DNA from: Minisyncoccota bacterium
GTDB taxonomy: Bacteria > Patescibacteriota > Minisyncoccia > Phycocordibacterales > UBA9973
Direction: 5' to 3'
Assembly: GCA_041663185.1 (NCBI GenBank)
Contig: JBAZQY010000001.1
Location: 233,087-297,086 of the forward strand
Length of the DNA: 64,000 bases
Shown: positions 933 to 61,368 of the stretch, in pieces
Position numbering within the stretch: position 1 is the stretch's first letter
Layout of the letters: each line of letters starts with the position of its first letter
Translations under genes and position numbers: made by a program
The notes under the pieces: generated by a model
The model's database searches: none
Told to the model about the DNA's origin: nothing
The model's input: only the letters and a program-made list of their open reading frames with translations

Positions 933-1886
933 ATGGATCAATTACAATTACAGCAAAAAATAGCAGAATATTTTGAAAAACTTCCTAAAGAGGTTCAGGG
1001 GATTTTTTCATCTATGACCTGGATGGAAACATTAAAAAATATTAGTACTAAATATAACCTAAATGAAAAACAGGTAGAAATTATCGGAACCGAAACAACA
1101 TTGGTTTTATTAGGTATAATTCACCTGGAGGAATATGTGAATATCTTGCATAAAGAATTAAGTTTAAATGAAGAAGTTTTTAACACAATGATTGATGAAA
1201 TTGATAATAATATTTTTAAAACAATCAAAAATCAACTTGTTGATACATATGAGGCAAATGTTTCATCTTTAGATAAAGAAAATGATAATGAAGAAAAATT
1301 AGATGAACGTTTTATAGGTTTACCTGAAGAAGTTAGGGAGGCAATAATTAAATCTAACTGGAAGAAAAAACTTTATGAAATTGCGTCAAAATATAAGCTC
1401 AATATCGAACAAATGGGGATTTTAGAAGATATGACAGTGAAAGTAATGACAAACGCAATCCACCCTGATAAATACGAAGGGGAATTAACTTCAAAAATAA
1501 CAATTTCCAAAGAAGACATTTCGAATCTTATAAAAGATGTAAACGAGAACATTTTAAGAAAGATCAGAAACATAATGGAAATAAAAACTGAAACAAAAAT
1601 TCCAGAAGTAAAAGATGAGGTTCCTCTGCCACCATATGCAATAAGTAGTAAGCAGGAAGTAGCAAGGAAGAAGGAAGAAGGGGATTCAATTCCTGTTACT
1701 CCAAAAATTGAGGCTCCAGTTGATAATTCTAAAAATATAATGAGTATTGTTGAGGAAAAATTAAAAAGTGCCACAATGAGTGATCATACAATTTCTGATT
1801 ATTCAGCTCCTAAAGTAAATAATACTCCTTCAAATAACCCAAACCCTTCAATTAAATCATCAGACCCTTATAGGGAAGCGTTTTAG
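933..1886 (+). CDS. hypothetical protein
   Basis: 317-aa ORF, charged and coiled-coil-like; no recognisable motif. Confidence 0.45.
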   Translation: MDQLQLQQKIAEYFEKLPKEVQGIFSSMTWMETLKNISTKYNLNEKQVEIIGTETTLVLLGIIHLEEYVNILHKELSLNEEVFNTMIDEIDNNIFKTIKNQLVDTYEANVSSLDKENDNEEKLDERFIGLPEEVREAIIKSNWKKKLYEIASKYKLNIEQMGILEDMTVKVMTNAIHPDKYEGELTSKITISKEDISNLIKDVNENILRKIRNIMEIKTETKIPEVKDEVPLPPYAISSKQEVARKKEEGDSIPVTPKIEAPVDNSKNIMSIVEEKLKSATMSDHTISDYSAPKVNNTPSNNPNPSIKSSDPYREAF

Positions 1887-2378
1887 ATTAGTAGAAAGTA
1901 GTATGTAGTAAGTAGTAAGGAAAATAAGTAACAGGTAGAAAGTAGTAAGTAGTATGGAAGAAAATAAAACTAAAATTAGTTCTTTTACTTCCCTGTTGGC
2001 ATGGCAGGAAGCGCACAAACTTACTCTTTTAATATATAAAAGATTACCAGAGTTTCCTGTTTATGAAAGATTTGGATTATGTGACCAATTACGTAGAGCT
2101 GTATCTTCAATATCCGCTAATATTGCCGAAGGTTTCGGAAGACACACATTAAAAGACAAGGTTCATTTTTATTATATTGCAAATGGTTCTCTTACTGAAA
2201 CGCAGAATCATCTTTTAGTTGCAAGAGATTTAAAATATTTAAATGATGAAAATTTTAAAAAAATAGCTGAACAAACGATTATCACTAGTAAACTTATCAA
2301 TGGTTTGATAAAATCAATTAATAGCAAGACGTAATTTTTCGTCCCTTACTACTTGCTACCTACTACCTACTACATTTA
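1887..2378 (+). repeat. palindromic hairpin element (GTAGTA-rich left arm, CTACTA-rich right arm) enclosing the four-helix-bundle ORF
   Basis: left arm gtagtatgtagtaagtagtaagg at about 1897-1919 is complementary to right arm cccttactacttgctacctactacctactac at about 2344-2375. Confidence 0.55.
1954..2334 (+). CDS. four-helix-bundle protein of the 23S rRNA intervening-sequence (IVS) protein / Avd-like family
   Basis: 126 aa; motifs LLAWQEAHKL, ANIAEGFGR and NHLLVARDLKYL typical of TIGR02436-type IVS proteins; sits in the loop of a long inverted repeat. Confidence 0.75.
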   Translation: MEENKTKISSFTSLLAWQEAHKLTLLIYKRLPEFPVYERFGLCDQLRRAVSSISANIAEGFGRHTLKDKVHFYYIANGSLTETQNHLLVARDLKYLNDENFKKIAEQTIITSKLINGLIKSINSKT

Positions 2379-2379
2379 C

Positions 2380-2799
2380 ATGCAATTCAAAGTCCCACAA
2401 TTTATTGATATCCAAGATAAACTATTTGGCCCTTTCACTTTTCATCAATTCGCATATCTTGTCGGCGGAGCTGGGATAATCTTCGTCATTTATAAACTAC
2501 TCCCATTGTGGATTGGTATTTTTTTAATGATTCCAATTGCTATTTTGTCCGCTTTACTTGTCTTTTATAAAATAAATGGCAAACCATTTATTTTCTACCT
2601 CCAAGCGGGTATTAGCTACCTTATTTCTAGTAAATTATATATTTGGAAACAAAGATTAGTAAAACCGGGCGATAAAACTAAAGAAGAAGAGGCTCCTACT
2701 CCTTCTTTGGTTTCGGTTCTTCCAATGACCTCCGAGAATAAGCTCAAAGACCTCGCTTGGAGCTTGGATGTACAAGATAAAGATGAAAGTAGCAAGTAG
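2380..2799 (+). CDS. PrgI-family membrane protein (conjugation/T4SS-associated)
   Basis: MQFKVPQFIDIQDKLFGPFTFHQFAYL followed by two TM helices; start moved to the internal Met because the annotated N-terminus is a translated repeat arm; immediately upstream of VirB4. Confidence 0.6.
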   Translation: MQFKVPQFIDIQDKLFGPFTFHQFAYLVGGAGIIFVIYKLLPLWIGIFLMIPIAILSALLVFYKINGKPFIFYLQAGISYLISSKLYIWKQRLVKPGDKTKEEEAPTPSLVSVLPMTSENKLKDLAWSLDVQDKDESSK

Positions 2800-2945
2800 A
2801 ATGTAGTAAGCAAAAAGAGGAAATAAAAAAATATGTTAATAGAATAAAAAATGGTAAAATATAACAAGTAGTAAACAGAAAGTGGTAAGCAAAAAGTATA
2901 AAATTAAATTCCCTTACTACCTACTACCTACTACATACTACACAT
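2800..2945 (+). repeat. second copy of the GTAGTA/CTACTA palindromic element (no ORF)
   Basis: gtagcaagtagaatgtagtaagcaaaaagagg ... cccttactacctactacctactacatactac. Confidence 0.55.
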
Positions 2946-3599
2946 ATGGCAATTAGTGCAAAAAGTTCTCAAGAATTTGTCCCAATTAAAGAAGTTCGAA
3001 ATGGAATCATTATTCTTAAAGATGGTGGTCTTCGGGCGATACTACTTGCTTCATCATTAAACCTTTCTCTTAAATCGGCCGACGAACAAACTGCCATAAT
3101 AAATGAATTTCAAAATTTTTTAAATGGTTTAGATTTTCCTATTCAAATTGCTATGCAATCTCGCCGACTAGATATCCGACCATATCTTTTGTCTCTAGAA
3201 GCCAGATTAAAAGACCAAGTTGAACCACTTCTTAAAATACAAACCAGAGAATACATAGACTTCATCCGATCATTCACCGAAGAAGTAAATATTATGACTA
3301 AGACTTTTTTTATTGTCGTTCCTTATAGTCCAACTGTTATAAAATCGGGAAATAAGATAGTCGAAGGTCTGCTTGGAGGAGGCACTCCTAAAAAGCAAGT
3401 GGAGGATACAAAGAAAGCCATTGACCTCGCCTCATTTGAAGAAAAGAGAACTCAACTTGATCAACGTGTCGGGGTTATTGCCGGAGGATTGGGGAGAATT
3501 GGTATTCGAACATCTGAACTTAAAACAGATCAGGTAGTTGAACTTTTTTATAAAACATTCAATCCAGGAGATATTAGTCAGGGAATTAAATTACAATAA
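2946..3599 (+). CDS. VirB4/TraC-family N-terminal domain protein (split VirB4, part 1)
   Basis: KEVRNGIIILKDGGLRAILLASSLNLSLKSADEQ resembles the N-terminal domain of Gram-positive-type VirB4 (PrgJ/TcpF-like); stop is 1 nt before the ATPase ORF. Confidence 0.6.
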   Translation: MAISAKSSQEFVPIKEVRNGIIILKDGGLRAILLASSLNLSLKSADEQTAIINEFQNFLNGLDFPIQIAMQSRRLDIRPYLLSLEARLKDQVEPLLKIQTREYIDFIRSFTEEVNIMTKTFFIVVPYSPTVIKSGNKIVEGLLGGGTPKKQVEDTKKAIDLASFEEKRTQLDQRVGVIAGGLGRIGIRTSELKTDQVVELFYKTFNPGDISQGIKLQ

Positions 3600-3600
3600 T

Positions 3601-5436
3601 ATGGGAATATTTTCATCACTATTTGGAAAAAAGGGAGATAGCGCTAAAAATAAAAGCGTCGTTATGCCGATTTTACCAAGTGAAATATATAAGGCGGCAA
3701 CACTTGAACTTCAAGATATTATCGCTCCTTCTGCTCTCCAAATAACTCCTAAGTCATTAAATTTGGGTGATAAAATTGCTAGAACATTCTTCGTTATTTC
3801 ATATCCAAGGTACCTCAGTGATAATTGGTTCTCACCAATCATCAACTTGGATAAGGTTTTTGATGTCTCTATTTTTGTTCATCCAATCGAGACTGCTGAA
3901 ATACTCCGAACTTTTCAGAAAAAAGTTGCAGAAGTTCAGAGTCAGATTTCTATTCGTGAATCAAAAGGCCTTGTTCGTGATCCAATGCTAGACACCGCCT
4001 ACAAAGATTTGGAAGATTTACGAGATAATTTGATGCAAGCTCAAGACAAAATGTTTGACGTTGGTATTTATATTACTGTCTATGCTGATAATGAAAATGA
4101 TTTATTTAAAATTGAAAATGAAATCAAATCTCTTCTTGATTCAAAATTAGTTTACTTAAAACCAGCCTTATTCCAACAAAATGAAGGATTCAAAAGTGTT
4201 ATTCCACTTGGTACGGACATTCTTGGTATTCATCAAAAGCTCAATACAGAGCCAATTTCAAGCGTCTTTCCATTCGTTTCTTTTGATTTGACGGAAGATA
4301 AGGGAATACTCTATGGAGTTAATCGTCATAATTCTAGTTTAATTCTTTTTGATAGATTTTCTTTACCAAATTATAATTCGATTACATTCGCAACTGCTGG
4401 AGCTGGTAAATCATATGCGACAAAACTTGAAATTATTCGTACTTTGATGTTTGATACTGAAGTTATCGTCATCGATCCTGAACGTGAATACGAATACTTG
4501 GCTGAAGCTATTGGTGGACGATATTTTAATATTGCTCTTTCCTCAGAGCACCATATTAATCCTTTCGATCTGCCGATTCCAACCGGCGAAGAGACAGGAG
4601 CGGATGTCCTACGAGCTAATACTATAAACCTAGTCGGATTATTCCGCATAATGCTTGGAGGTTTAACCCCAGAAGAAGATTCAATTATCGATAGTGCTAT
4701 TACTGAAACATACGCTCTAAAAGATATCACCGCCAATTCAAATTTTATGAATATCGAGCCACCAATGTTATCTGATTTTGAAGTGGTTTTGTCGGGCATG
4801 CAGGGGAGTGAATCACTAATGCAACGTTTGATTAAATATACCCATGGATCTTGGGCTTCATTCTTAAATCAACCATCAAATGTAGATATTAATCGCAAGT
4901 TTATTGTCTTTTCTGTTCGAGATATGGAAGATGAACTCAAACCAGTCGCAATGTATATTGTTACTCACTATATCTGGAATGCTGTTCGAAAAAATATAAA
5001 GAAAAGATTACTAGTAGTAGATGAGGCCTGGTGGATGATGAAATCAGAAGATACCGCTTCTTTCCTCTACTCAATTGCCAAGCGTGGAAGAAAATATTGG
5101 TTGGGACTTGCCACTATTACTCAAGATGTGGGAGATTTCATGAAAAGTGCTTATGGCATCCCAATCGTGACTAACTCGTCTATCCAATTACTTCTTAAAC
5201 AATCTCCAGCAACCATAGATGTTTTACAGAAAACATTCAACCTAACAGATGAGGAGAAATACTTATTACTCGAAGCCAATGTTGGAGAGGGAATATTCTT
5301 TGCCGGTTTAAAACACGTAGCCATCAAAACAATTGCTTCATATACAGAGGATCAAATTATTACTTCCGACCCTTCACAAATCTTAGCCATCAAAAAAGCC
5401 AAGGAAGAGTTATTATCTTCAAATAGCAGTAATTAG
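3601..5436 (+). CDS. VirB4-like T4SS ATPase (split VirB4, part 2)
   Basis: Walker A FATAGAGKSYA, Walker B LLVVDEAWWMM; ORF is open upstream to 3538 in another frame relative to part 1. Confidence 0.85.
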   Translation: MGIFSSLFGKKGDSAKNKSVVMPILPSEIYKAATLELQDIIAPSALQITPKSLNLGDKIARTFFVISYPRYLSDNWFSPIINLDKVFDVSIFVHPIETAEILRTFQKKVAEVQSQISIRESKGLVRDPMLDTAYKDLEDLRDNLMQAQDKMFDVGIYITVYADNENDLFKIENEIKSLLDSKLVYLKPALFQQNEGFKSVIPLGTDILGIHQKLNTEPISSVFPFVSFDLTEDKGILYGVNRHNSSLILFDRFSLPNYNSITFATAGAGKSYATKLEIIRTLMFDTEVIVIDPEREYEYLAEAIGGRYFNIALSSEHHINPFDLPIPTGEETGADVLRANTINLVGLFRIMLGGLTPEEDSIIDSAITETYALKDITANSNFMNIEPPMLSDFEVVLSGMQGSESLMQRLIKYTHGSWASFLNQPSNVDINRKFIVFSVRDMEDELKPVAMYIVTHYIWNAVRKNIKKRLLVVDEAWWMMKSEDTASFLYSIAKRGRKYWLGLATITQDVGDFMKSAYGIPIVTNSSIQLLLKQSPATIDVLQKTFNLTDEEKYLLLEANVGEGIFFAGLKHVAIKTIASYTEDQIITSDPSQILAIKKAKEELLSSNSSN

Positions 5437-6486: not shown

Positions 6487-8118
6487 ATGAAAAAATTCTC
6501 ATTATACACATTAATATCCGTAATAATTATTAACTTTTTCTTACCGTTTGGTATTAGTTTGAGTAATAATTTAGTCGAGAGAAAAATAGCAGAAGCGGCA
6601 AATGATTGTGTAATTTCTTCAGCTTTTTGGGACCCATCGGGGGAGCAAGCTGATAAATTCTATAGAGAAGGAGCGACAACAGCAAATATCAAAGTAAAAT
6701 CAAAAAATTGTGTCGGGGTAACAGGAATAAATTTAACTATTTACGAATCCGATGGTTGGGGTACCTTTAAGGATGATGTTTGGGATGATTCTGGATTGGA
6801 TGATAGAGAAATATCTATTCCATCTGATAATTTCGCAGTAAGATTATTATTGGGTGAAGAGGATTGCGAAACTAAGCTTACGGGTGGTTTTAAGTTTGAT
6901 TGCGATTTGTATTTTAAATTTAAAAGTGGAACGGATGTTATTTATAGTTCTGTTAATATTGGTTCAAATGGTGATACTGCAGGTAGTAGCGACCCGGGTT
7001 GGCTTTGGTATGGTTGTGATTACACAACCGGAGAACTTTGTGACCAAGATGGGCAATTTTTAGAAGTAATTGCCCTGGGAAACAATGATGACTCAGTAAA
7101 TTTTGATGCATTAGATCCCATTAATTTAGATAATTCATATAATTTATTGGCCCCTATTGGTGATTTTACAAAAGCACCTGATAATATGGGGGATTATTTC
7201 CAATTAATATTTGAACTAGCGATTGCTCTCTGTGCAGTTCTTGCTGTTGTAATGATTGTTATTGGTGGAATTCAATATATGGGGAATGAGTCCATTTTTG
7301 GAAAGACTGAAGCTAAAAGTAAAATAAAATATGCTATTGGTGGTCTATTAATTGCTCTTGGGGCTTATGCATTACTAAACACAATTAATCCAGATTTACT
7401 CGGTGGTAAGGGTGTAACAATAGATCAGGTTAGTGCTGAAATAGTTCGTGATCGTGCTTCAGATCCTGCTTTTATGCAAAATATTGATAGTTTTGACACT
7501 TCTAATATAACAATAACTCCTTCAGATTATAGTGATCCAACCTTTCTTGGATATATGGGGCACCAACAGGGTAGCGCAGGAGCTTCAGCAATCCTTTGGT
7601 CAGCTCATAAAGGATATACAAGTGTTCCAGCTGATAATCCATTCACAAAAAGTGATATCAATAGAAATATGAAAGGAAACTTTAATACAACAAGTGCTCA
7701 AAAAACAATAGGTACATCAGTACTTACCCCCGACAACTTTTTGAAATATTGGGCAACTAAAGTTGCGGCAGTTAAAAATGAAACTACCCCAGTAATTCCA
7801 TCAATGATAGAAAGCGAACTCGGAAAAGTCGCTAGTGAAACTGGAGTTGATATAGCAACACTAAAAACAATCTGCCGAATTGAATCAGCCGGAGGATGCA
7901 CCAATGATTCATCTATTACTACAGTTAATAACCTAGGATATGCTGGATTATTCCAATTAAGTAATAAGGTTTATCAAAAAAACACTGGTGTCTGGGAAGC
8001 ATACAAAAAAAGTGATGGGGTTCTCCTTGATGCTTACCACAATGCTTTTGTTGCGGCCAAATATTTCAGCGTAAACTTAAGTGGAATAAAGAAGAATTGG
8101 TCAAAAATAAATAATTAA
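6487..8118 (+). CDS. membrane protein with two central TM helices and a C-terminal lytic transglycosylase (SLT/VirB1-like) domain
   Basis: signal peptide; TM pair around LAIALCAVLAVVMIVIGG and IGGLLIALGAYALL; SLT motifs RIESAGG, GYAGLFQL and AYHNAFVAAKYF. Confidence 0.55.
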   Translation: MKKFSLYTLISVIIINFFLPFGISLSNNLVERKIAEAANDCVISSAFWDPSGEQADKFYREGATTANIKVKSKNCVGVTGINLTIYESDGWGTFKDDVWDDSGLDDREISIPSDNFAVRLLLGEEDCETKLTGGFKFDCDLYFKFKSGTDVIYSSVNIGSNGDTAGSSDPGWLWYGCDYTTGELCDQDGQFLEVIALGNNDDSVNFDALDPINLDNSYNLLAPIGDFTKAPDNMGDYFQLIFELAIALCAVLAVVMIVIGGIQYMGNESIFGKTEAKSKIKYAIGGLLIALGAYALLNTINPDLLGGKGVTIDQVSAEIVRDRASDPAFMQNIDSFDTSNITITPSDYSDPTFLGYMGHQQGSAGASAILWSAHKGYTSVPADNPFTKSDINRNMKGNFNTTSAQKTIGTSVLTPDNFLKYWATKVAAVKNETTPVIPSMIESELGKVASETGVDIATLKTICRIESAGGCTNDSSITTVNNLGYAGLFQLSNKVYQKNTGVWEAYKKSDGVLLDAYHNAFVAAKYFSVNLSGIKKNWSKINN

Positions 8119-9651: not shown

Positions 9652-10119
9652 CTATATAGAATTATCAACATATTTTATAACAACCCGACGATTCGGACCA
9701 TAACCCTCTGATTCCGTTTTTATATCTTTTGCTCCTTCCAAGAACATATGGATGATTCTTCTTTCGTAGGCAGGCATTGGATCAACTTCAATGTTGCTTT
9801 TAAAATATCTAGCCCGTTCGGCCATCATATGGGCGATATTTTTTAAATTCTCAAAACGCTTTTTTTGATAACCATTAACATCAATAAATATATTGGGGCC
9901 TTTTTCTTCTTCTTTTAATCCTTTTTCTATAATTTTTTGAACAAGATGATTCAAAGAGCGAAGAGTCTCGCCATCTCTTCCAATAATAAACCCCGAATCC
10001 GGAGTTTCGATCATACACCAAGTCATACCTCCCTCATCGGAGAATTCACACCGAGAAATAGCACATGAGGTGTGTTTAAAAATCTGTTCTATTGTCTCTT
10101 TTATCTTATCTTTATACAT
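9652..10119 (-). CDS. jag: Jag/KhpB RNA-binding protein (KH + R3H domains)
   Basis: R3H signature ERRIIHMFL and GYGPNRRVVIKY; lies downstream of yidC as in the canonical oriC locus. Confidence 0.75.
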   Translation of the reverse strand: MYKDKIKETIEQIFKHTSCAISRCEFSDEGGMTWCMIETPDSGFIIGRDGETLRSLNHLVQKIIEKGLKEEEKGPNIFIDVNGYQKKRFENLKNIAHMMAERARYFKSNIEVDPMPAYERRIIHMFLEGAKDIKTESEGYGPNRRVVIKYVDNSI

Positions 10120-10124
10120 AAAAA

Positions 10125-10886
10125 TTAATTTGGGGTGTGTGTCAATTTACGACGGATATACCATTCTTGAACGATAGTAAATATATTACTCACAATCCAA
10201 TATAATGCAACTGCGGCTGATATTTTCCAAGCAATAAAAGCAATAAAAACCGGTAAAATATATTTAACATTCATTTGCATGCTTTCAGAGAGTTGTTCTT
10301 GAAACGTCTTTGGGGCTGGGACTTCTGTTGTTCCTTTTACAATTTCAACCTTTGGTTTAACTGGTGATGATAAATAACCTTGAATAAACTGAGTCACCCC
10401 AGCAAAAATACCGAGGAAAAGGCTCTTACTTCCCATTTCTATTAAACCAAGGAAATTGGTGTGCAAACTATCTGGTGTTTGGATAAATGAGTATATCAGA
10501 CTTGGATCAACCGCAAATGGTTTATAAAAAACATAATACAACGCAAAAATAACCGGGAGTTGAAGAATAACGACCAAACAACCAGAAAATGGATTTGTCC
10601 CATATTTTTTATATAATTCAAAGGTTTTTTTAGCTTGTTCTTCTTTATTGGGGAAATCTTTTTTAATCTGCTTAAGCTCGGGTTCCATTTTTTTCATTAA
10701 TATTTGGCTTTTAATGGACTTGCGGGTAAGGGGAGCAAGTATTAATTTTACGATTATTGTCACTAAAATAATAGCAAAACCAACATCACCAAAAGTGATA
10801 TTGTCTATTATAAATATAAGAATATTGTATATGGGTTGGTAAAAGACACTATTCCACAGAGCTTGCATTTCCCTATTGTAGCACAA
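10125..10886 (-). CDS. yidC: membrane protein insertase YidC (short form)
   Basis: multi-TM with PFSGCLVVILQLPVIFALYYVF; position in the rnpA-yidD-yidC-jag order. Confidence 0.85.
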   Translation of the reverse strand: MCYNREMQALWNSVFYQPIYNILIFIIDNITFGDVGFAIILVTIIVKLILAPLTRKSIKSQILMKKMEPELKQIKKDFPNKEEQAKKTFELYKKYGTNPFSGCLVVILQLPVIFALYYVFYKPFAVDPSLIYSFIQTPDSLHTNFLGLIEMGSKSLFLGIFAGVTQFIQGYLSSPVKPKVEIVKGTTEVPAPKTFQEQLSESMQMNVKYILPVFIAFIAWKISAAVALYWIVSNIFTIVQEWYIRRKLTHTPN

Positions 10887-10984
10887 GGAAGCAAAAAGTA
10901 GAAAGTAGTATGTAGAAAGATTGGTTTGAAATATTTTATATTATGTTTTTGTTTTTTCCCTTACTACCTACTACTTACTACCTA
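10887..10984 (+). repeat. third copy of the GTAGTA/CTACTA palindromic element
   Basis: aagcaaaaagtagaaagtagtatgtagaaag ... cccttactacctactacttactacctattac between yidC and yidD. Confidence 0.55.
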
Positions 10985-11191
10985 TTACTTAATTGGGTCG
11001 TAATGATTTTTTTGCCAAGGATGACAACGAGAGATCCGAACAACACCCCGCCAAAGGCCAGTCCAGACTCCATATTTTAAAATGGCTTGTTTAGTATATT
11101 CTGAGCAGGTTGGCAAAAAGACACAAGATGAGTGAGATCGAAGTGGTATTTTTTGATAAATATTTATTAACCAAAGTAATATTTTTTTCAC
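10985..11191 (-). CDS. yidD: membrane protein insertion efficiency factor YidD
   Basis: FLPTCSEYT ... RCHPW signature. Confidence 0.8.
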   Translation of the reverse strand: MKKILLWLINIYQKIPLRSHSSCVFLPTCSEYTKQAILKYGVWTGLWRGVVRISRCHPWQKNHYDPIK

Positions 11192-25391: not shown

Positions 25392-28300
25392 TTGCAATTA
25401 GCTATGGCGAGACAAAGAATGAAAAATAATATGAAAAAATTAATAGTTGGTTTATTTGCTTTTGTTCTACTTTTAGTAGGTCAGAGTGTTTTTGCGGCAC
25501 CATTGTCGTATGTCACTTGGAATACGAGCCCTGATGATTGTCCAGATATAAATATAAAAAACGGTAATGTTGGTGGTGGCAATCCATGTTGGACGGGAGT
25601 AAATATAACTGCTGTTCCTGGGAATAATATTGATGTTAAGGTTTACTACCACAACACTGGAGACATGACAGCTACAAATACTCGCATTAAAGTTATTCCT
25701 TCTCCGAGCGTTGGTCAATCAGACACAGTCCACTCTTTCATTGGGAAAATACTTTCTAATCAAGCAAACCACACATCAAATGGTGATGTGACGGTTACAA
25801 TATCTTCATCACAGTCATTATCTTTTGTTTCAACAACTTGGTGGACAAAACCCGACCCAGATGAAAATTATCTTGAAGCAACTCCATTACTTTCTGGTCA
25901 AGATGGTTCTGAAGTTCTCGAATCAAATGGTTTATATATTGGTGATATCGCCCCAGGTTGGGGAACTCAAGGAGCCGTCACTGTTCGCTTTCATGTGAAC
26001 AATGTTGCACCACCAACTTGCGAGATAAATAATTTTGAAGCCAATCCTGATACTGTACCTCCCGGACAGCTTTCAGAGCTTTCTTGGAATACAACCAACT
26101 GTGCTTACTCGAAAATTTTTGTTAATGGAAATCAAATCGGAGGCACTCACTACGGCTCATCCGGTAGTTATAATGTTTGGCCAAATGATACAACCGAGTA
26201 CACTCTCAAGGCCTATAAATCAAATGGTACAGTTGGAGATACACAAACAACGACTGTCACTGTAAATGCTCCACCCGAGAATTGTTCAATTGATTATTTC
26301 AAAGCCAATCCAACTCATATAGTTCTTGGTGGATCTTCAACGTTGTCATGGGATACAACTAATTGTGAGACAACCAAACTTTCTGTGGGAACTGGACTCA
26401 AATCTCTCGGTGTTTATGGTTCATCTGGATCAAAAACAGTTTCCCCAATAATGACAACTACTTATACTCTCAAAGCTTATAGTGCCAACGGGACTCTCGG
26501 TGAGACTAAAACTGCAAAGGTTACAATCACTACAACTACACCTGAATGTTCAATCATAGATTTCGATGCAACCCCGAATCATATTGATGAAGGAGATTCT
26601 TCTACGCTCGACTGGACTGTCAGTAATTGTGCCTACACAAAATTATTTAAAAATAATTCCCCAATTGGCGGTCCTTATTATGGAACAACTGGTTCTAAGA
26701 GTGTCTCACCAGAGGATACGACAACCTACACACTAAAAGCATATAAACAAAACGGAACTGTTGGAGCTATGGCAACGGCGATTGTTAATGTGAATACTAC
26801 AATTACCCCAACTTGTTCTATTACTGACTTTACAGCTAGCCCGACAACAATTGATCCGGGTGAGTCTTCTATCCTTGAGTGGGATACAACGGGTTGTCAG
26901 ACAACCAAACTTTTCATCGGTTATACCCAGATTGGACAATATGGTGCATCTGGTTCGAAAACAGTTTCACCAGAACATCAAACTACGTACACACTCAAAG
27001 CTTATATCGGGCAAGTTGAAAAAGCGTCAAGTTCTGTGACGGTTAGTATCAGTACACAAGATTGTCAAATAGCATTTTTCTACGCTGTTCCAACAACTAT
27101 CACAAATGGAGAATCTTCGGTTTTAAATTGGAATACAAGTGATTGTTACAACACCAAACTTTTCATCGGCTATACCCAGATTGGAACTTTTGAACCATCT
27201 GACGCTTTGACTGTTTGGCCCGATCACTTAACTACATATACACTCAAAGCCTACAATTTAAATGGAACTGTGGGAGACACAGCCCAAGCAACTATTGAAG
27301 TAGAAGCTCTACCAGCTTGTTCTATAAGTAATTTTACAGCTAGTCCGACATCAATTGACGAAGGGGATTCCTCAATGCTTACGTGGAATACCAGTGGTTG
27401 TGAAAGTGTAGTCATATCAAATCTTGATTACGGTGTTCCTGTTTCAGGGTCACAAACTGTTTGGCCAGAAGACACGACAACGTATGTATTAACAGCGACC
27501 GGACAAGGTGGTGATGTCCACACTAGATCGGTAACTGTCTATGTTGATACCAATAATTCTAATTGTTCCATCTCGTCTTTCTACGCAGTTCCTTCATCTA
27601 TCGAAGAAGGAGAATCTTCAAAATTATATTGGACGACAAATGGTTGTACAAATGTAAACATTGAAGGAATTGGCCAAGTTTCAACAAATGGTTCCCGAAC
27701 TGTTTGGCCAACATATACTCGAACATATATTCTAAACGCTGAAGATAACAATGGTAATGGAGTTAGTGGCCAAACAACTATTTATGTAGATGAAGAAAAT
27801 AATAATAATTGTGAGATTAATAATTTTGACGCAAGTGATACAAGTATAGAAGATGGTGATGAGGTAACTCTCGAATGGAACACCAGTAATTGTGACTATG
27901 TAAAAATTACAGATCTTGGAAATGTTCCAGACGATGGAGAAGAAGATGTTTCTCCAGATGAAGATACTACTTATGTCTTAACCGCCTATGATTTTGACGG
28001 ATCACATCAGACCGAATCGATTAGAATTTATGTTGATGAAGATGGTAATAATAATGGAGATGAATGTACGGTTGATAGTTTCACTGCATCCGATACATAT
28101 ATAGATCGTGGGGATGAAGTAACTCTCAGATGGAGAACAACAGATTGTGATGATGTTAGTATTACTAATGTCGGAGATGTTTCTGATGATGGAAGTGAAG
28201 ATGTTTCTCCTTATCAAACCACAACTTATATTCTACGAGCTTATGGAGATGGAAGTGATTCTAAATCTATTCGGATTAATGTAAATAATTACAATGATGA

Positions 28301-37244: not shown

Positions 37245-38189
37245 CTAAACGAATAATTTTTGATGAACATTACAAAAATGTGTACTACGTCCATTTATAA
37301 CTTTTCTCATTATAACACCAGAACAAGCATGTTTACCACATTTTGTATTTTTCTTCTGATAAACGTTATGTTTATTTTGAAAATTACCTTTTTCTCCATG
37401 GATATTCCGATAATCAGACATCGAATCACCACCGAAATCTATTCCTTTAGTAAGGACCTTTTTCATTTCTTTATACAATTTTAATAATTTTTCCGGAGGT
37501 ATTTTTATTGAATTTGATTCTGGATGAATACTAGAAGACCAAAGCATTTCATCTGAATAAATGTTTCCGATTCCAGCAATAACTGTCTGGTCCATTAAGA
37601 TAGTTTTTATCTTTCCGCTTGTTTTTAAAAATAGACGATCTTTAAACTTTTCAAAAGTAAAAATTTTTTCTAATGGCTCGGGACCAATATTTTTCAAGTG
37701 CAAAGTATTTTCTAAATCATGAGTTGGTATAATGGTAACCTTCCCGAATTTACGAGAATCACAAAAAGCCAAATGTTTAACACCCGAGAAAGTAAAAACA
37801 ACATGAATAAATCGATTACATGGATCTGATAGAGATTTCCTTTCATTTTTATCTGGAACCCAGCTTACTACTTTCTGCTTACTACCTACTACTTGTTTGT
37901 ATTCGCCAAAAAGAAGATGCCCAGTCATTTTTAGATGAATGAGAATTGTATAACCACCAGAAATATGAATTAGAATATTTTTTGCTCGTCTTTCTACTCT
38001 TAGAACTTTTTTCCCGATAACTTTTTTCTTAAATTTTTTGAAAAATACATCATTTTTAATTGTGTCTTGAAATTGTTTAACTTTTTGATTTTTTTTCGAA
38101 AGATCAGTCCAGATATCAACAAAAACAAGCCCTGGTAGGACTTTTTGCAAACCATTTACTGTTGTGGTGACTTCTGGGAGTTCAGGCAT
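37245..38189 (-). CDS. mutM: formamidopyrimidine-DNA glycosylase (Fpg/MutM)
   Basis: MPELPEV N-terminus; C-terminal zinc finger CGKHACSGV ... HFCNVHQ; carries an in-frame repeat-like segment at about 37864-37895. Confidence 0.9.
   Translation of the reverse strand: MPELPEVTTTVNGLQKVLPGLVFVDIWTDLSKKNQKVKQFQDTIKNDVFFKKFKKKVIGKKVLRVERRAKNILIHISGGYTILIHLKMTGHLLFGEYKQVVGSKQKVVSWVPDKNERKSLSDPCNRFIHVVFTFSGVKHLAFCDSRKFGKVTIIPTHDLENTLHLKNIGPEPLEKIFTFEKFKDRLFLKTSGKIKTILMDQTVIAGIGNIYSDEMLWSSSIHPESNSIKIPPEKLLKLYKEMKKVLTKGIDFGGDSMSDYRNIHGEKGNFQNKHNVYQKKNTKCGKHACSGVIMRKVINGRSTHFCNVHQKLFV
37864..37895 (+). repeat. CTACTA-repeat segment (cttactactttctgcttactacctactacttg) embedded in frame in fpg
   Basis: exact cttactacctactac match to the right arm of the hairpin elements; encodes an extra roughly 20-aa loop compared with E. 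coli Fpg. Confidence 0.5.
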
Positions 38190-38247
38190 GAAAAAATAAT
38201 TAGGAATTAATAATTAAGAATTACGAATTGAGAAAATAAATATAAAA

Positions 38248-38826: not shown

Positions 38827-38958
38827 GTATAAATAATAGCAAATATTGCTCTTTTGGGCTATTTCTGGTAATATTCTTGTATTAAGTTTTGCTGGTGTCT
38901 CGGCAGGATTTGAACCAAATTCTTAATTCGTAATTATTAATTCTTAATTAAATATAAT

Positions 38959-48028: not shown

Positions 48029-48382
48029 ATGGACTACATATCATACGAAGAATTTAAAAAGATGGATATCCGAGTTGGAACAATCAAGGAAGTTGAAATA
48101 ATTCCAGAGACCGACAAACTTTTACGTTGCCAGGTAGATTTTAATGAAATTAATGAAGAAGGAAATAAAAAGTTAAGACAAATTGTTTCAGGGATAAAAG
48201 AATATTATCCCGACCCACAGGTCTTAGTAGGGAAACAGGTACTATATATTGTAAATCTTGAACCAAGAAAAATTAAGGGATATGAAAGTAATGGAATGCT
48301 AATGGCGGTGGATGGAATCGATGGCAAGCCAGTTTTTCTTATTCCTGAAGTCGAAGTTAATCCCGGAAGTAGGGTGAGGTAA
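48029..48382 (+). CDS. tRNA-binding domain protein (CsaA/Trbp111-like)
   Basis: MDIRVGTIKEV ... IVSGI ... SNGMLMA OB-fold pattern. Confidence 0.7.
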   Translation: MDYISYEEFKKMDIRVGTIKEVEIIPETDKLLRCQVDFNEINEEGNKKLRQIVSGIKEYYPDPQVLVGKQVLYIVNLEPRKIKGYESNGMLMAVDGIDGKPVFLIPEVEVNPGSRVR

Positions 48383-48445
48383 TTAAGAATTAAAAATTAA
48401 GAATTAAAAAATGTCGAACCAATTAATTACTAGAACCTAATTCAA

Positions 48446-52067: not shown

Positions 52068-52856
52068 ATGAAAATAAAAATTTTATACGAAGATAAAAAT
52101 ATTTTAGTTATCGATAAACCAGCGGGTATTTCAGTGCATGGAGATGGTAAAACCAAAGAAGAAACAATTTCTGATTGGGTGCTTTCAAATTACCCATCAA
52201 TAAAAAATGTCGGAGAGCCAATTAAATTAAAAATTAAGAATGAGGAATTAAGAATTAATCGGCCGGGAATTGTCCACCGCTTAGATAAAGAAACTTCGGG
52301 AATTTTGATTATTGCTAAAAATCAAAAAACTTTTCTTTTTTTGAAGGAGCAATTTATGAACCATAAAGTTAAAAAAGTTTACCGAGCATTTGTTTATGGT
52401 TATGTTTCTGATCCCAAGGCTTCACTTCTTACCGGTGGAAGGGGAGTAATAAATGTTCCAATAGGTCGCTCATCAAAAGATATCAGGGCATATACTGCTG
52501 GGCGTGGAGCGAGAGCCCCACTTCGTGAGGCTGTGACAGAATATATTATTTTAAATAAGTTTACTGATTCGAGCGATGAAAATGAAAAGAAAAAAATTGA
52601 ACATCAGTATTCTTATATTGAAGCATATCCAAAAACTGGGCGAACTCATCAGATTAGAGTTCATATGCGTTATATTAATCACCCAGTAGTTTCTGACCCG
52701 ATTTATCGTGGAATAAAAGAGAAATCTTTAGGCATGAAGCGCCTCGCGCTTCATGCCTATTCGGCAACTTTTACTCTTCCAAATGGAAAAGTGAAAACTG
52801 TAGAATCTCCACTTCCGGCTGATTTCAAAAAGGTGTTAAAAACATTTTTGAATTAG
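52068..52856 (+). CDS. RluA-family pseudouridine synthase
   Basis: catalytic HRLDKETSGILIIAKN. Confidence 0.85.
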   Translation: MKIKILYEDKNILVIDKPAGISVHGDGKTKEETISDWVLSNYPSIKNVGEPIKLKIKNEELRINRPGIVHRLDKETSGILIIAKNQKTFLFLKEQFMNHKVKKVYRAFVYGYVSDPKASLLTGGRGVINVPIGRSSKDIRAYTAGRGARAPLREAVTEYIILNKFTDSSDENEKKKIEHQYSYIEAYPKTGRTHQIRVHMRYINHPVVSDPIYRGIKEKSLGMKRLALHAYSATFTLPNGKVKTVESPLPADFKKVLKTFLN

Positions 52857-60493: not shown

Positions 60494-60988
60494 ATGCCAA
60501 TTGTTTCGTGTAAAATATGTTCAAAGAAGTTTTACGGAAAACCTTTTTTCTTAGAAAGAGGGCATGCAAAATATTGTTCGCAAGAATGTATGAGAATTGG
60601 AAGTCGAACTGGTAAAATAGTAAAATGTCATTTGTGTGATAAAGAAGTGTATAAAACAAAGAAAGCTTTACGTGTTTCAAAAAGTAAAACTTATTTTTGT
60701 ACAAAATCTTGTCAGACAAAATGGCGCAATTCTATTTTTATTGGGTCCAAACACTCAAATTATAAGAACGGTTTATATTCTTATAGAAGTGTACTCTCTA
60801 GGCATAAAATTCCAAAGGTTTGTAAACTATGTAAAACCAATGATGTAAGATTGTTAGCTGTACATCACATTGACCATGTTAGAAATAATAATTCTGTTTC
60901 CAATTTAGCGTGGTTGTGTCACAATTGTCATTTTCTCGTTCATCACGATAAGGATGTAGAGAAAAAATTTATGGAGGTATTAGTGTAG
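60494..60988 (+). CDS. HNH homing endonuclease
   Basis: HHIDHVRNNNSVSNLAWLCHNCHFLVHH plus N-terminal Cys-rich zinc-binding region; 3' end overlaps the tRNA-His by 16 nt. Confidence 0.85.
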   Translation: MPIVSCKICSKKFYGKPFFLERGHAKYCSQECMRIGSRTGKIVKCHLCDKEVYKTKKALRVSKSKTYFCTKSCQTKWRNSIFIGSKHSNYKNGLYSYRSVLSRHKIPKVCKLCKTNDVRLLAVHHIDHVRNNNSVSNLAWLCHNCHFLVHHDKDVEKKFMEVLV

Positions 60989-61044
60989 TAGTAACACAGC
61001 TCTCTGTGGAAGAGCTATCATGAGTGCAAATCTCATATACCTCC
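60973..61044 (+). tRNA. tRNA-His (anticodon GUG) with G-1:C73
   Basis: G-1, acceptor GAGGTAT/ATACCTC, D-arm GTGTAGTAGTAACAC, anticodon stem GCTCT/AGAGC loop CTGTGGA, T-arm ATGAGTGCAAATCTCAT, discriminator C. Confidence 0.8.
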
Positions 61045-61100
61045 CAAGATTACCCAAAAAACAAATAAGGATTAAAAAGCGTACTCGCCTTGTAAATATA

Positions 61101-61139
61101 AAACTAAAAAGACACACCTTGGTGTGTCTTTTTAGTTTT
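61101..61139. terminator. bidirectional terminator
   Basis: aaactaaaaagacacaccttggtgtgtctttttagtttt. Confidence 0.75.
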
Positions 61140-61143
61140 ATAT

Positions 61144-61368
61144 TTAGTTTCTCCTACCTTCTGATAATTCTTTCTTAGTATCTTCATCTGGTGTTTCTTT
61201 CATTATTCCACCACCATATTCAACAAATTCTGGTGTTTTTGCGTTAGCAACAGATAGGGCCTCATCTCTTATTTCTTTCCACTCTTTTTTTGTTAAACCG
61301 TGGTTGTTTCTATTATATAGATATTCTTCTTCTTGGGTGAGTGTGGGTTCGCTGTTTAATTTTTCCAT
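61144..61368 (-). CDS. small hypothetical protein
   Basis: 74-aa ORF with the terminator downstream. Confidence 0.4.
   Translation of the reverse strand: MEKLNSEPTLTQEEEYLYNRNNHGLTKKEWKEIRDEALSVANAKTPEFVEYGGGIMKETPDEDTKKELSEGRRN

Follow-up and report, generated by a model that had tools for sequence, protein, structure and literature searches.

Intervening sequences of rRNA genes have the layout of a stem-loop that carries an ORF. Rickettsia palindromic elements (RPEs) are described as selfish repeats that lie in frame in protein-coding genes (Ogata et al. 2000, 2002; reviewed in PMC10969869). Direct repeats of the heptamer TAACTGA are found in Beggiatoaceae, Cyanobacteria, and Bacteroidetes (MacGregor 2015, PMC4679880) and were proposed to bind a post-transcriptional regulator (PMC4679880). 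Work cited there found that heptanucleotides outnumber every other class of long simple-sequence repeat in many bacteria; they are attributed to polymerase slippage (Mrazek et al. 2007, in PMC4679880). In Borgs, tandem repeats create disordered protein regions (PMC9879509).

Here we describe a short in-frame array of 7-nt units in the fpg (mutM) gene of a Minisyncoccota (Candidatus Paceibacterota) genome. The window, meaning the whole 64-kb stretch of DNA analyzed, contains related arrays between genes and inside two further ORFs. Our search of the literature on heptamer or hairpin repeats in CPR bacteria, on the peptide and DNA strings reported below, and on cassettes with an intervening-sequence (IVS) protein gene returned no description of this arrangement.

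Results

The product of the host gene matched the Pfam families Fapy_DNA_glyco (PF01149, 6e-23) and H2TH (PF06831, 5e-24) and scored above the NCBIfam equivalog cut-offs of NF002211 (237.3 bits, cut-off 212) and TIGR00577 (230.7 bits, cut-off 203.3). Foldseek, run on the AF2 model of the protein (pLDDT 78), returned MutM 1r2y and Lactococcus lactis Fpg (LlFpg) 1pm5 as the best structures (E = 3e-20, target-normalised TM 0.77). Residues M1-E6 of the MPELPEV start, with the catalytic Pro2-Glu3, are invariant across 36 orthologues, and the H2TH motif spans residues 168-259. The zinc finger has the invariant residues C284, C289, C306, and H309, a C-x4-C...C-x2-H variant of the usual C-x2-C...C-x2-C pattern; the Pfam zinc-finger model gave no match on this protein. 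With the equivalog cut-offs passed and the catalytic N-terminus, the H2TH motif, and the zinc-finger Cys/His kept in orthologues, the gene looks intact, and the protein with its repeat-derived loop is predicted to be a functional glycosylase still.

Positions 37864-37895 read cttactactttctgcttactacctactacttg on the plus strand and lie inside fpg, which is encoded on the minus strand, exactly where the original prediction had placed the segment. The coding strand, CAA GTA GTA GGT AGT AAG CAG AAA GTA GTA AGC, translates to QVVGSKQKVVS in the protein context GEYKQVVGSKQKVVSWVP. After the first codon it divides into the heptamers GTAGTAG, GTAGTAA, GCAGAAA, and GTAGTAA, followed by GC; these are head-to-tail units that match the consensus, and a run of at least four of them was our test for the (GTAGTAA)n family. 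The canonical 21-nt cycle, GTA GTA AGT AGT AAG TAG TAA, encodes VVSSK and then two stops. In the third unit of the fpg copy, the in-frame TAG TAA of the canonical cycle reads CAG AAA, each codon differing by a single first-position change, and the frame is preserved across the segment, as had been proposed, within a 314-residue ORF that passes the Fpg cut-offs.

The segment matched a perfect (GTAGTAA)n template at 26/29 positions, compared with 22-27/29 for the intergenic hairpin arms and a maximum of 22/29 in 200 codon-block shuffles of the window; its 7-nt autocorrelation was 16/21. The 15-mer CTTACTACCTACTAC occurs exactly at three window sites, in fpg (37878) and at 2913 and 10960 in the right arms of hairpin elements, which bears out the exact match claimed for these arms. 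Allowing up to two mismatches, it has 16 window matches against 0.10 expected. When the fpg loop was compared with the rest of the window by blastn-short, it aligned with 2345-2373 (29 nt, 90%), 10960-10990 (31 nt, 87%), and 2868-2890 (23 nt, 91%), and overall four other window copies matched it at 87-91% identity over 23-31 nt. Exact stretches of 15-17 nt and the unit variants GTAGTAG and GCAGAAA are common to the fpg loop and the dispersed copies of the same genome.

Coordinates of all features are collected in Table 1. Between genes, the arrays often adjoin start codons, as does the right arm 2909-2946 at the next gene, and they are arranged as pairs. The first pair and the IVS-protein gene that it encloses form a cassette of roughly 460 bp, which is missing between the same neighbour genes in two relatives, where PrgI directly follows the homologue of ORF933. 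The element at 10880-11000 folds as RNA into a long hairpin (-27.6 kcal/mol, z = -3.95); for single (AATTAAG)n arrays, no fold was significant. No Rfam family scored above its gathering score at the hairpin elements or at the fpg segment, the whole window yielding seven tRNAs only. A link to diversity-generating retroelements through an Avd-like four-helix-bundle protein was considered and rejected (Avd model, 19.5 bits versus a cut-off of 80; no template/variable-repeat likeness).

The fpg segment is a solo arm, unlike these paired intergenic elements: no complementary array lies within 25 kb that could serve as its hairpin partner, and the local fold of the fpg mRNA is not significant (z = -0.34). 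The flanks (TAC AAA CAA before the array, TGG after it) display neither terminal inverted repeats nor a target-site duplication. Two further heptamer segments lie in frame in other ORFs of the window. The one in the hypothetical ORF agrees at 25/27 positions with the Fpg loop DNA of the relative L095, and the one in the RluA-family synthase stands just before the RPGIVHRLD motif.

Table 1. Features of the window, with positions counted from its first nucleotide
Feature	Position	Strand	Evidence
Second in-frame (GTAGTAA)n-derived segment, reads ISSKQEVARKKEEG, hypothetical ORF 933-1886	1633..1675	+	24/29
Two (GTAGTAA)n left-arm arrays, ending in start codon of 23S rRNA IVS-protein gene	1884..1964	+	27/29 and 25/29
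Four-helix-bundle / 23S rRNA intervening-sequence protein gene, between arms	1954..2334	+	PF05635 4e-34; TIGR02436
(GTAGTAA)n right arm, TTACTAC on + strand	2341..2378	-	26/29; 87% complementary to 1891-1920
Intergenic element without ORF	2779..2946		Left-type arrays 2779-2818, 2861-2898; right arm 2909-2946
Intergenic hairpin element	10885..10997		Left array 10885-10921, right array 10952-10997
fpg/mutM CDS, 314 aa, host gene	37245..38189	-	ORF, Pfam, NCBIfam, AF2 model vs MutM/Fpg structures
Lineage-specific extension, residues 92-118, absent in solved bacterial Fpg structures	37836..37916	-	phmmer vs PDB
Predicted beta-hairpin, residues 97-112	37854..37901	-	AF2 secondary structure
Repeat-derived in-frame segment, Q99-S109	37863..37895	-	Match to (GTAGTAA)n, shared 15-mer
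Intergenic (AATTAAG)n array between ruvA and fpg start	38187..38241	+	Inverted partner of 38912-38956: 33 nt, 91% complementary
Intergenic (AATTAAG)n array upstream of ruvA	38912..38956	-	Array scan, inverted-repeat pair
Third in-frame segment, (AATTAAG)n reading IKLKIKNEELRIN, RluA-family pseudouridine synthase ORF 52068-52856	52221..52263	+	26/29

The phmmer alignment against the PDB paired residues 2-91 and 119-310 of the window protein with residues 2-79 and 84-270 of LlFpg, leaving 27 residues (92-118) unaligned where LlFpg has 4, in agreement with the predicted loop extension of about 20 residues. Of these roughly 23 extra residues, only ~11 come from the repeat; the remaining extension, W-x-P-DKNER-x-x-L-x-DP-x-NRF, is conserved lineage sequence that is also present in orthologues without the repeat. 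In the AF2 model the hairpin consists of a strand (97-101), a turn (102-107), and a second strand (108-112), with its distal half repeat-derived, and the mean pLDDT is 87 for residues 91-100, 76 for 101-110, and 82 for 111-120.

Between the flanking Y and W, the widespread short form has 8 residues (VFNKKENK, 24 nt) and the window gene has 12 (36 nt). The ancestral tip DNA, GTT TTT AAT AAA AAA GAA AAT AAA, has left no trace in the window gene, and the alignment indicates that the repeat segment replaced the ancestral 8-residue hairpin tip. A clean insertion of three units (21 nt), suggested by a first alignment, was discarded, as the short form is shorter by 12 nt and the old tip is fully replaced. 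The "mini-insertion of the repeat into a housekeeping gene" of the original prediction is thus upheld as to repeat origin, frame, and intact gene, and has to be restated as a replacement.

Among the 120 closest Fpg orthologues, 68 have the short tip Y-(V/I)FNKKENK-W, 21 have a GTAGTAA-type module, and 21 have an (AATTAAG)n-type module. The segment is not private to this genome: the same VVSSKQKVV-type module, with the same codons used, occurs in 21 of these 120 Paceibacterota orthologues (66-80% identical), and therefore the event is old or has spread among relatives. One change specific to the window gene, AGT to GGT, restores an arm variant of its own genome. Had the loop been ancestral, unrelated lineages would be expected to carry it; the more distant orthologues have the short tip, no loop, or wholly different inserts.

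In nine module-bearing orthologues, which are not independent samples of codon use, GTA encodes 25 of 26 loop valines versus 25 of 149 (17%) elsewhere in the same genes. Where these nine have identical residues, the codons agree in 83% (198/238) of cases in the loop versus 57% (4186/7405) in the rest. A neighbor-joining tree of the 120 closest proteins, built with the loop masked, was a star-like clade with all pairs at ~74%. Mean identity outside the loop was 0.74-0.75 within loop classes versus 0.735-0.744 between classes; similarity in the remaining protein does not follow the loop class. From this comparison, the module may have had a single origin followed by losses or recombination, or it may have been gained repeatedly. 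The flanking DNA of the module-bearing relatives, up to 21 kb per contig, contained no (GTAGTAA)n arrays outside the fpg loops; the window arrays sit 27-36 kb from fpg, farther than the distance searched in the relatives. Source and copy were seen together for the GTAGTAA family in the window genome only and for the AATTAAG family in L001.

Different repeats occupy the same loop in other relatives. The fpg loop of L025 contains a 30-nt palindrome identical to L025:6745-6774 (E = 2e-12), and that of L043 matches L043:1447-1490 over 44 nt at 91% (E = 9e-12). Two compensatory T-A to C-G pairs set the L043 palindrome in fpg apart from the intergenic copy, and the 19-bp stem is kept in the CDS. In L001, 33 nt of the loop are 88% identical to an intergenic (AATTAAG)n array (L001:9175-9207, E = 7e-5), and three further heptamer families are present at this loop in L057, L077, and L059. 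Strong 7-nt periodicity, defined as at least 15/21, was detected in 12 of 70 loops and in 0 of 1297 control windows of the same genes. Together, these comparisons indicate that the Fpg loop is a recurrent landing site for repeat DNA among related bacteria.

Discussion

We consider it likely that the fpg segment is a solo, partly degenerate copy of about four (GTAGTAA)n units, which took the place of the tip of a surface hairpin in the N-terminal beta-sandwich domain and now serves as neutral filler. In an ancestor of a Paceibacterota subgroup, short-patch ectopic copying from an array would have produced the copy, whether by gene conversion, by template switching, or by an insertion combined with a deletion. 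If the known topology of Fpg is used to place the hairpin with respect to bound DNA, its tip would face away from the DNA-binding and catalytic side (Pro2/Glu3, Met88, Arg146/Phe148), and the segment could survive there. Alternating V and K/S, as the array translates, would be compatible with a beta-hairpin. For the protein, the segment most likely amounts to neutral filler, with the hairpin made four residues longer. Neutral filler does not account for the strong codon conservation, which could reflect selection on the DNA or RNA itself.

An alternative that shares the repeat origin and differs on the reason for persistence is that the array is kept as a working nucleic-acid element of the fpg mRNA or DNA, either as a binding site for a factor specific to the heptamer arrays or by pairing with TTACTAC arrays of other transcripts, the protein loop being a by-product. 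The near-exclusive use of GTA in the loop, in genes whose other synonymous sites are largely randomised, would fit such an element, as would the compensatory pairs that keep the L043 stem within a CDS and the position of intergenic arrays next to start codons, which recalls the TAACTGA repeats (PMC4679880). The fpg segment, however, has neither local structure nor a complementary array within 25 kb, the orthologues behind the codon counts are not independent, and the 68 of 120 with the short tip do well without the segment; we judge this explanation improbable. We know of no factor that binds heptamer arrays. It is highly improbable that the periodicity was born within fpg by replication slippage on a local seed, its likeness to the arrays reflecting a shared slippage bias. 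Slippage is held responsible for the abundance of heptanucleotide repeats in many bacteria, and the loops of different orthologues do have different heptamer units; yet steps of 7 nt break the frame unless three units are gained together, the ancestral tip has no GTAGTAA seed, the dispersed copies of the same genome have the unit, its variants, and the 15-17-nt exact stretch in common with the loop, and the palindromic inserts of other orthologues at this site cannot be products of slippage.

Chance or compositional convergence, that is, an ordinary lineage-specific loop rich in K, V, and S in an AT-rich genome, is scarcely credible. The loop is short (~30 nt), these residues are common in such proteins, and 64 kb offer many places for a 15-mer to match, but no shuffle reached the observed score, amino acid selection cannot produce a 7-nt periodicity, outside the loop GTA encodes a minority of the valines of the gene, and a similar chance match would be needed again, with different repeat families, in other orthologues and in two more genes. 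The shuffles, the GTA bias, and the periodicity counts effectively refute it. As assemblers can be misled by repeats and the window belongs to a metagenome-assembled genome, a repeat misjoined into fpg also has to be weighed; with the frame intact and the same module present, with conserved flanks, in independently assembled contigs of several projects (L093-L098, L013, L002), the probability of such an artefact is practically negligible.

With this segment, a conserved DNA-repair enzyme of a reduced genome bears repeat DNA as working protein sequence, and across related lineages different repeats have rewritten one permissive loop many times. The result is a natural experiment on how repeats, selfish or regulatory, come into coding sequence, how their stop codons are repaired, and how much insertion a fold tolerates. 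In CPR proteins, peptides like VVSSKQKVV, IKNEELRIKN, and ITNDELRITN are signatures of heptamer arrays and are not to be taken for functional motifs. A more far-reaching proposal, which we hold to be rather unlikely, is that in Paceibacterota an active, possibly structure- or microhomology-directed process copies heptamer arrays and palindromic hairpins, time and again, into those loops of housekeeping genes that are AT-rich and code for hairpins, and that the copies keep a nucleotide-level function, perhaps as sites of processing or binding connected with the IVS-protein cassettes. The conserved GTA codons and the compensatory stem changes within a CDS would be signs of such a function. Examples of repeated copying would be fpg, the RluA-family synthase, and the secretion-operon ORF in one window, and about ten repeat families at the Fpg loop across relatives. 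If copying were indeed active and repeated, small repeats would be a regular source of protein-loop variation in ultra-small genomes; if embedded copies were under nucleotide-level selection, an undescribed RNA- or DNA-level system built on the arrays would be implied.

Comparison with known repeat systems

The cassette resembles 23S rRNA intervening sequences (PF05635/TIGR02436) in having a four-helix-bundle ORF between complementary arms (1884-1964 and 2341-2378). It differs from them in lying among the protein genes of a type-IV-secretion-like operon, with heptamer arrays as arms. Like REP/BIME, ERIC, MITE-type, and Borg repeats, the arrays are small non-autonomous repeats that occasionally enter a CDS and add peptide. 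The terminal inverted repeats or target-site duplication of a MITE are absent from the flanks of the fpg segment, and Borg repeats are perfect and recent, with unit lengths that inside genes are multiples of three, whereas the fpg unit has 7 nt and the copy is old and degenerate.

RPEs and the TAACTGA repeats are the nearest analogues. With the TAACTGA repeats, the window arrays share tandem 7-nt units that lie mainly between genes, in many cases immediately before a start codon, a unit that contains stop codons and in one orientation closes all three frames, and a minority of copies inside ORFs, mostly at the protein periphery. Unlike them, the window arrays form inverted pairs that make long hairpins, one pair enclosing a gene, and the fpg copy lies mid-enzyme instead of at a terminus, in the stop-containing orientation with its stops mutated to sense.

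RPEs are palindromes of ~100-150 bp with their own conserved peptide; the fpg segment, a solo array of 7-nt units, measures roughly 30 nt, holds in its canonical form stop codons that needed changing, and replaced old sequence instead of simply being inserted. Several unrelated repeat families occupy one Fpg loop in CPR orthologues, a situation that is not known for RPEs. The segment is not palindromic, has another sequence, and comes from another phylum, so that the likeness to RPEs is one of behavior alone: a dispersed small repeat family that lies both between genes and in frame in unrelated housekeeping genes, in small, reduced genomes, at sites where the fold tolerates insertions and the host proteins apparently remain functional.

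The repeat-derived segment in fpg

The plus-strand sequence at 37864-37895 was exactly as first described and lies inside the minus-strand fpg gene. The ORF is, as judged from its sequence and structural model, a bona fide Fpg/MutM, since the product matches the Pfam N-terminal and H2TH domains, exceeds the cut-offs of two NCBIfam equivalog models, and yields an AlphaFold2 model (mean pLDDT 78) with MutM and Lactococcus lactis Fpg (LlFpg) as its top PDB matches. An identical protein is annotated in the database as belonging to a Candidatus Paceibacterota MAG.

The original prediction of an exact match to the right arm of the hairpin elements was borne out by a 15-mer, CTTACTACCTACTAC, present at 2913, 10960, and 37878. 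Allowing up to two mismatches, the window contains 16 matches, compared with 0.1 expected. The segment agrees with a perfect (GTAGTAA)n template at 26/29 positions (22-27/29 for the intergenic arms), and none of 200 codon-block shuffles scored above 22. The loop DNA also aligns to four other copies with 87-91% identity over 23-31 nt. On the coding strand, its units read GTAGTAG, GTAGTAA, GCAGAAA, GTAGTAA, and GC. Because 7 and 3 are coprime, a canonical array yields the same 21-nt cycle in any frame, GTA GTA AGT AGT AAG TAG TAA (VVSSK-stop-stop); in fpg, the stops are replaced by CAG AAA (Q K), with a single first-position change each. We found no complementary partner for the intragenic copy and no significant local fold, indicating that it is a solo arm.

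The segment codes for Q99-S109 in the context ...HLKMTGHLLFGEY-KQVVGSKQKVVS-WVPDKNERKSLSDPCNRF.... Fpg residues 92-118 stand opposite LlFpg 80-83, a surplus of ~23 residues over solved bacterial Fpg structures, in line with the loop originally predicted to be ~20 residues longer than that of E. coli. Only ~11 of these residues are repeat-derived, and the W-x-P-(DKNER)-x-x-L-x-DP-x-NRF part is ordinary lineage sequence. AlphaFold2 places strands at 97-101 and 108-112 around a turn at 102-107 with moderate to good confidence, predicting a β-hairpin (97-112) of which the repeat-derived part is the distal half. In the known Fpg topology, residues of two motifs (Met of HLxMxG, Arg/Phe of RKFG) enter DNA at one end of the β-sandwich, and the strand following this Met heads away from that end; the hairpin tip should therefore lie far from DNA.

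Elsewhere in the protein, the zinc finger (residues 284-309, window 37245-37340) deviates from the usual C-x2-C...C-x2-C: it has the form C-x4-C...C-x2-H, which does not vary among 36 orthologues. The window Fpg gave no match to the Pfam zinc-finger model. In the fpg genes of two relatives (L079:2100-2136 and L084:1293-1322), a second stretch has (CAATTTA)n-like 7-nt periodicity with unchanged length, reading F-Q-F-(T/K)-I-F-N-(L/F)-Q-L and aligning with FTFEKFKDRL of the window protein.

Loop classes and codons in orthologues

We sorted the 120 closest homologues (66-80% identity) by the residues lying between the conserved positions Tyr97 and Trp110. A short tip of 8 residues, (V/I)FNKKENK, was found in 68; a GTAGTAA-type module, VVSSKQKVV(S/G) or the longer VVSSKQKVARKIN, in 21; an (AATTAAG)n-type module, TKKVIKNEKLRI(K/T)N, in another 21; and various other loops in 10. 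Among more distant orthologues (46-73%), the short tip predominates, the loop is missing altogether from some (Y-K-K-DPxNRF), and several carry long unrelated inserts of up to ~45 residues. As the commonest form among the distant orthologues, the short tip is the leading candidate for the ancestral form. Going from the short form to the window form, the tip grows from 24 nt to 36 nt and retains none of its old sequence; this is a replacement and not a clean insertion. Of the tolerated mini-insertion originally proposed, the repeat origin and the tolerance stand, whereas the event is old, shared among orthologues, a replacement, and accounts for only half of the extra loop. Loop class was nearly uncorrelated with similarity in the remaining protein, reflecting either an unresolved radiation of the clade or fast loop turnover or recombination.

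DNA was compared for nine module-bearing orthologues (the window and relatives' contigs L093-L098, L013, and L002). Valine is coded by GTA in 25/26 loop positions, compared with 25/149 (17%) in the remainder of the same genes; serine is AGT or AGC, and the lysine preceding the former stops is AAG. Where residues are identical, their codons agree in 83% of cases in the loop versus 57% elsewhere. The module is thus built of the repeat's own codons. Most copies share the same "repair" of the stops, CAR AAA; L097 has AAG AAA and L094 has CAA CAA. The window copy alone shows GGT in place of AGT. This change restores the variant unit GTAGTAG, which is typical of right arms in this genome, and weakly hints that the genome's own arrays have converted the loop.

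The Fpg loop as a site of recurrent repeats

The KNEKLRIKN-class loops are in-frame (AATTAAG)n (AAA TTA AGA ATT AAG AAT). On the L001 contig, the array in the loop matches an intergenic one ~1.1 kb farther upstream at 88% over 33 nt (E = 7e-5). Three further families, with units CGAAATT, AAATGCA, and ACTAACA, occupy the loops of L057, L077, and L059, respectively. In L025, the loop carries a 30-nt perfect palindrome (9862-9891) equal to an intergenic hairpin on its own contig (6745-6774; E = 2e-12); the intergenic copies (6745-6774 and 7046-7084) resemble terminator hairpins and lie on both sides of a small gene. A related palindrome in the L043 loop (3899-3942) is 91% identical to its own intergenic copy (1447-1490); it differs at four positions, which make up exactly two compensatory T-A to C-G pairs and so keep a 19-bp stem within coding sequence. 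Other palindromes occur in the loops of L041, L051, L026, L028, L040, and the orthologous protein P0103; in P0052 and P0065, inserts are nested within an AATTAAG-type module. A 7-nt autocorrelation of at least 15/21 was observed in 12/70 loops versus 0/1297 control windows of equal length from the remainder of the same genes. Together, these sequence comparisons mark the Fpg loop as a hot spot for repeats.

Arrays elsewhere in the window

Heptamer arrays and host ORFs in the window
Feature	Position	Description
fpg ORF	37245-38189	minus strand, 314 codons
GTAGTAA (complement TTACTAC) cluster 1	1884-1964 with 2341-2378	arms around four-helix-bundle gene
GTAGTAA cluster 2	2779-2946	
GTAGTAA cluster 3	10885-10997	long hairpin, -27.6 kcal/mol, z = -3.95
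Segment in ORF 933-1886	1633-1675	in-frame, (GTAGTAA)n-derived, reads ISSKQEVARKKEEG
(AATTAAG)n array	38187-38241	one of inverted pair around ruvA
(AATTAAG)n array	38912-38956	other member of inverted pair around ruvA
(AATTAAG)n array	48375-48417	
(AATTAAG)n array in RluA-family pseudouridine synthase (ORF 52068-52856)	52221-52263	26/29, reads IKLKIKNEELRIN

A 7-nt periodicity scan of the window revealed two further arrays within real coding sequence. One lies in a conserved hypothetical protein (ORF 933-1886) encoded in an operon beside PrgI/TraC-like genes; its DNA matches the L095 Fpg loop at 25/27 positions. Following PLPPYA, homologues have a SSKQEVVSSK-type linker, an IKNEELGIRNE- or ITNDELRITNE-type linker (AATTAAG/AATTACG), or no peptide. 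The L099 homologue confirmed the GTA/AGT/AAG codons, with stops changed to GAG GAA or GAG CAG. The other array directly precedes the catalytic RPGIVHRLD motif of the RluA-family synthase. Most of the 120 closest homologues have IIEREGGKKEKIL of nearly equal length at this place, so the loop looks overwritten, not lengthened.

The gene between the cluster 1 arms (1954-2334) encodes a 126-aa four-helix-bundle "23S rRNA intervening-sequence protein" (PF05635, TIGR02436). Because the ORF 933-1886 homologue and PrgI are merely 19-22 nt apart in two relatives, this gene with its complementary arms (1884-2378) looks like an inserted cassette of ~460 bp. Just upstream of fpg, two 33-nt (AATTAAG)n stretches (38197-38229 and 38918-38950) are 91% complementary, with ruvA wholly between them.

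In relatives, single arrays occur at differing intergenic sites around S20-ruvA-fpg, and some lack any ruvA-fpg spacer. In a close relative, the region from the S20 gene to ruvA contains yet another heptamer family, (GCTAGTT)n (L093:1498-1537), showing that related genomes differ in their array families. Arrays often end within a few bases of start codons (2946, 2381, 1954, 38189, and ~48411), a placement also described for the TAACTGA repeats of Beggiatoaceae; they may thus have a role in initiating translation or in processing mRNA. The diverged coding repeats at 26151-27650 (families D1-D5, tandem units of ~250-264 nt) are unrelated to the heptamer arrays and probably encode repeated domains of a large protein. 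Just past a tRNA (60974-61044), a perfect inverted repeat of 26 nt with a loop of 2 nt (61093-61146) looks like a terminator.

Origin of the segment

In the best supported explanation, a permissive Fpg hairpin tip was overwritten by an ectopically copied heptamer array in an ancestor of one Paceibacterota subgroup. Either the donor variant would already have lacked the stops or they would have been repaired; variants such as GTAAACAGAAAG are present intergenically at 2868-2890. The copy would have been inherited since then as tolerated protein sequence.

De novo slippage in situ inside fpg is at odds with the frame constraint, the absence of a seed, and the multi-unit variants common to the loop and distant copies. 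Retention of the segment for a nucleic-acid function would account for the codon conservation of the loop and for the compensatory changes in L043; however, we found no structure or partner for the fpg segment. Chance resemblance is refuted by the shuffle scores, the GTA codon bias, and the 7-nt autocorrelation relative to controls, and an assembly artefact by the recurrence in independent assemblies.

Comparison with known systems

The phenomenon is general and provides a tractable case of repeats turning into protein sequence. In literature coverage that was incomplete, and that gives absence of evidence only, we found no description of heptamer arrays as hairpin arms in CPR genomes, of an array used in its stop-containing orientation, with the stops repaired, midway through a conserved enzyme, or of one loop occupied repeatedly by many unrelated repeat families. 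According to the review PMC10969869, Rickettsia palindromic elements insert into numerous genes while keeping the reading frame (Ogata 2000/2002). The fpg segment behaves like these elements but is not one of them, differing in size, sequence, and symmetry. The window's heptamer arrays are similar to the TAACTGA repeats known from Beggiatoaceae, cyanobacteria, and Bacteroidetes. Those heptamers lie mainly between genes, often right next to start codons, carry stops in all frames of one orientation, and are seldom found within ORFs, then mostly at protein ends (PMC4679880).
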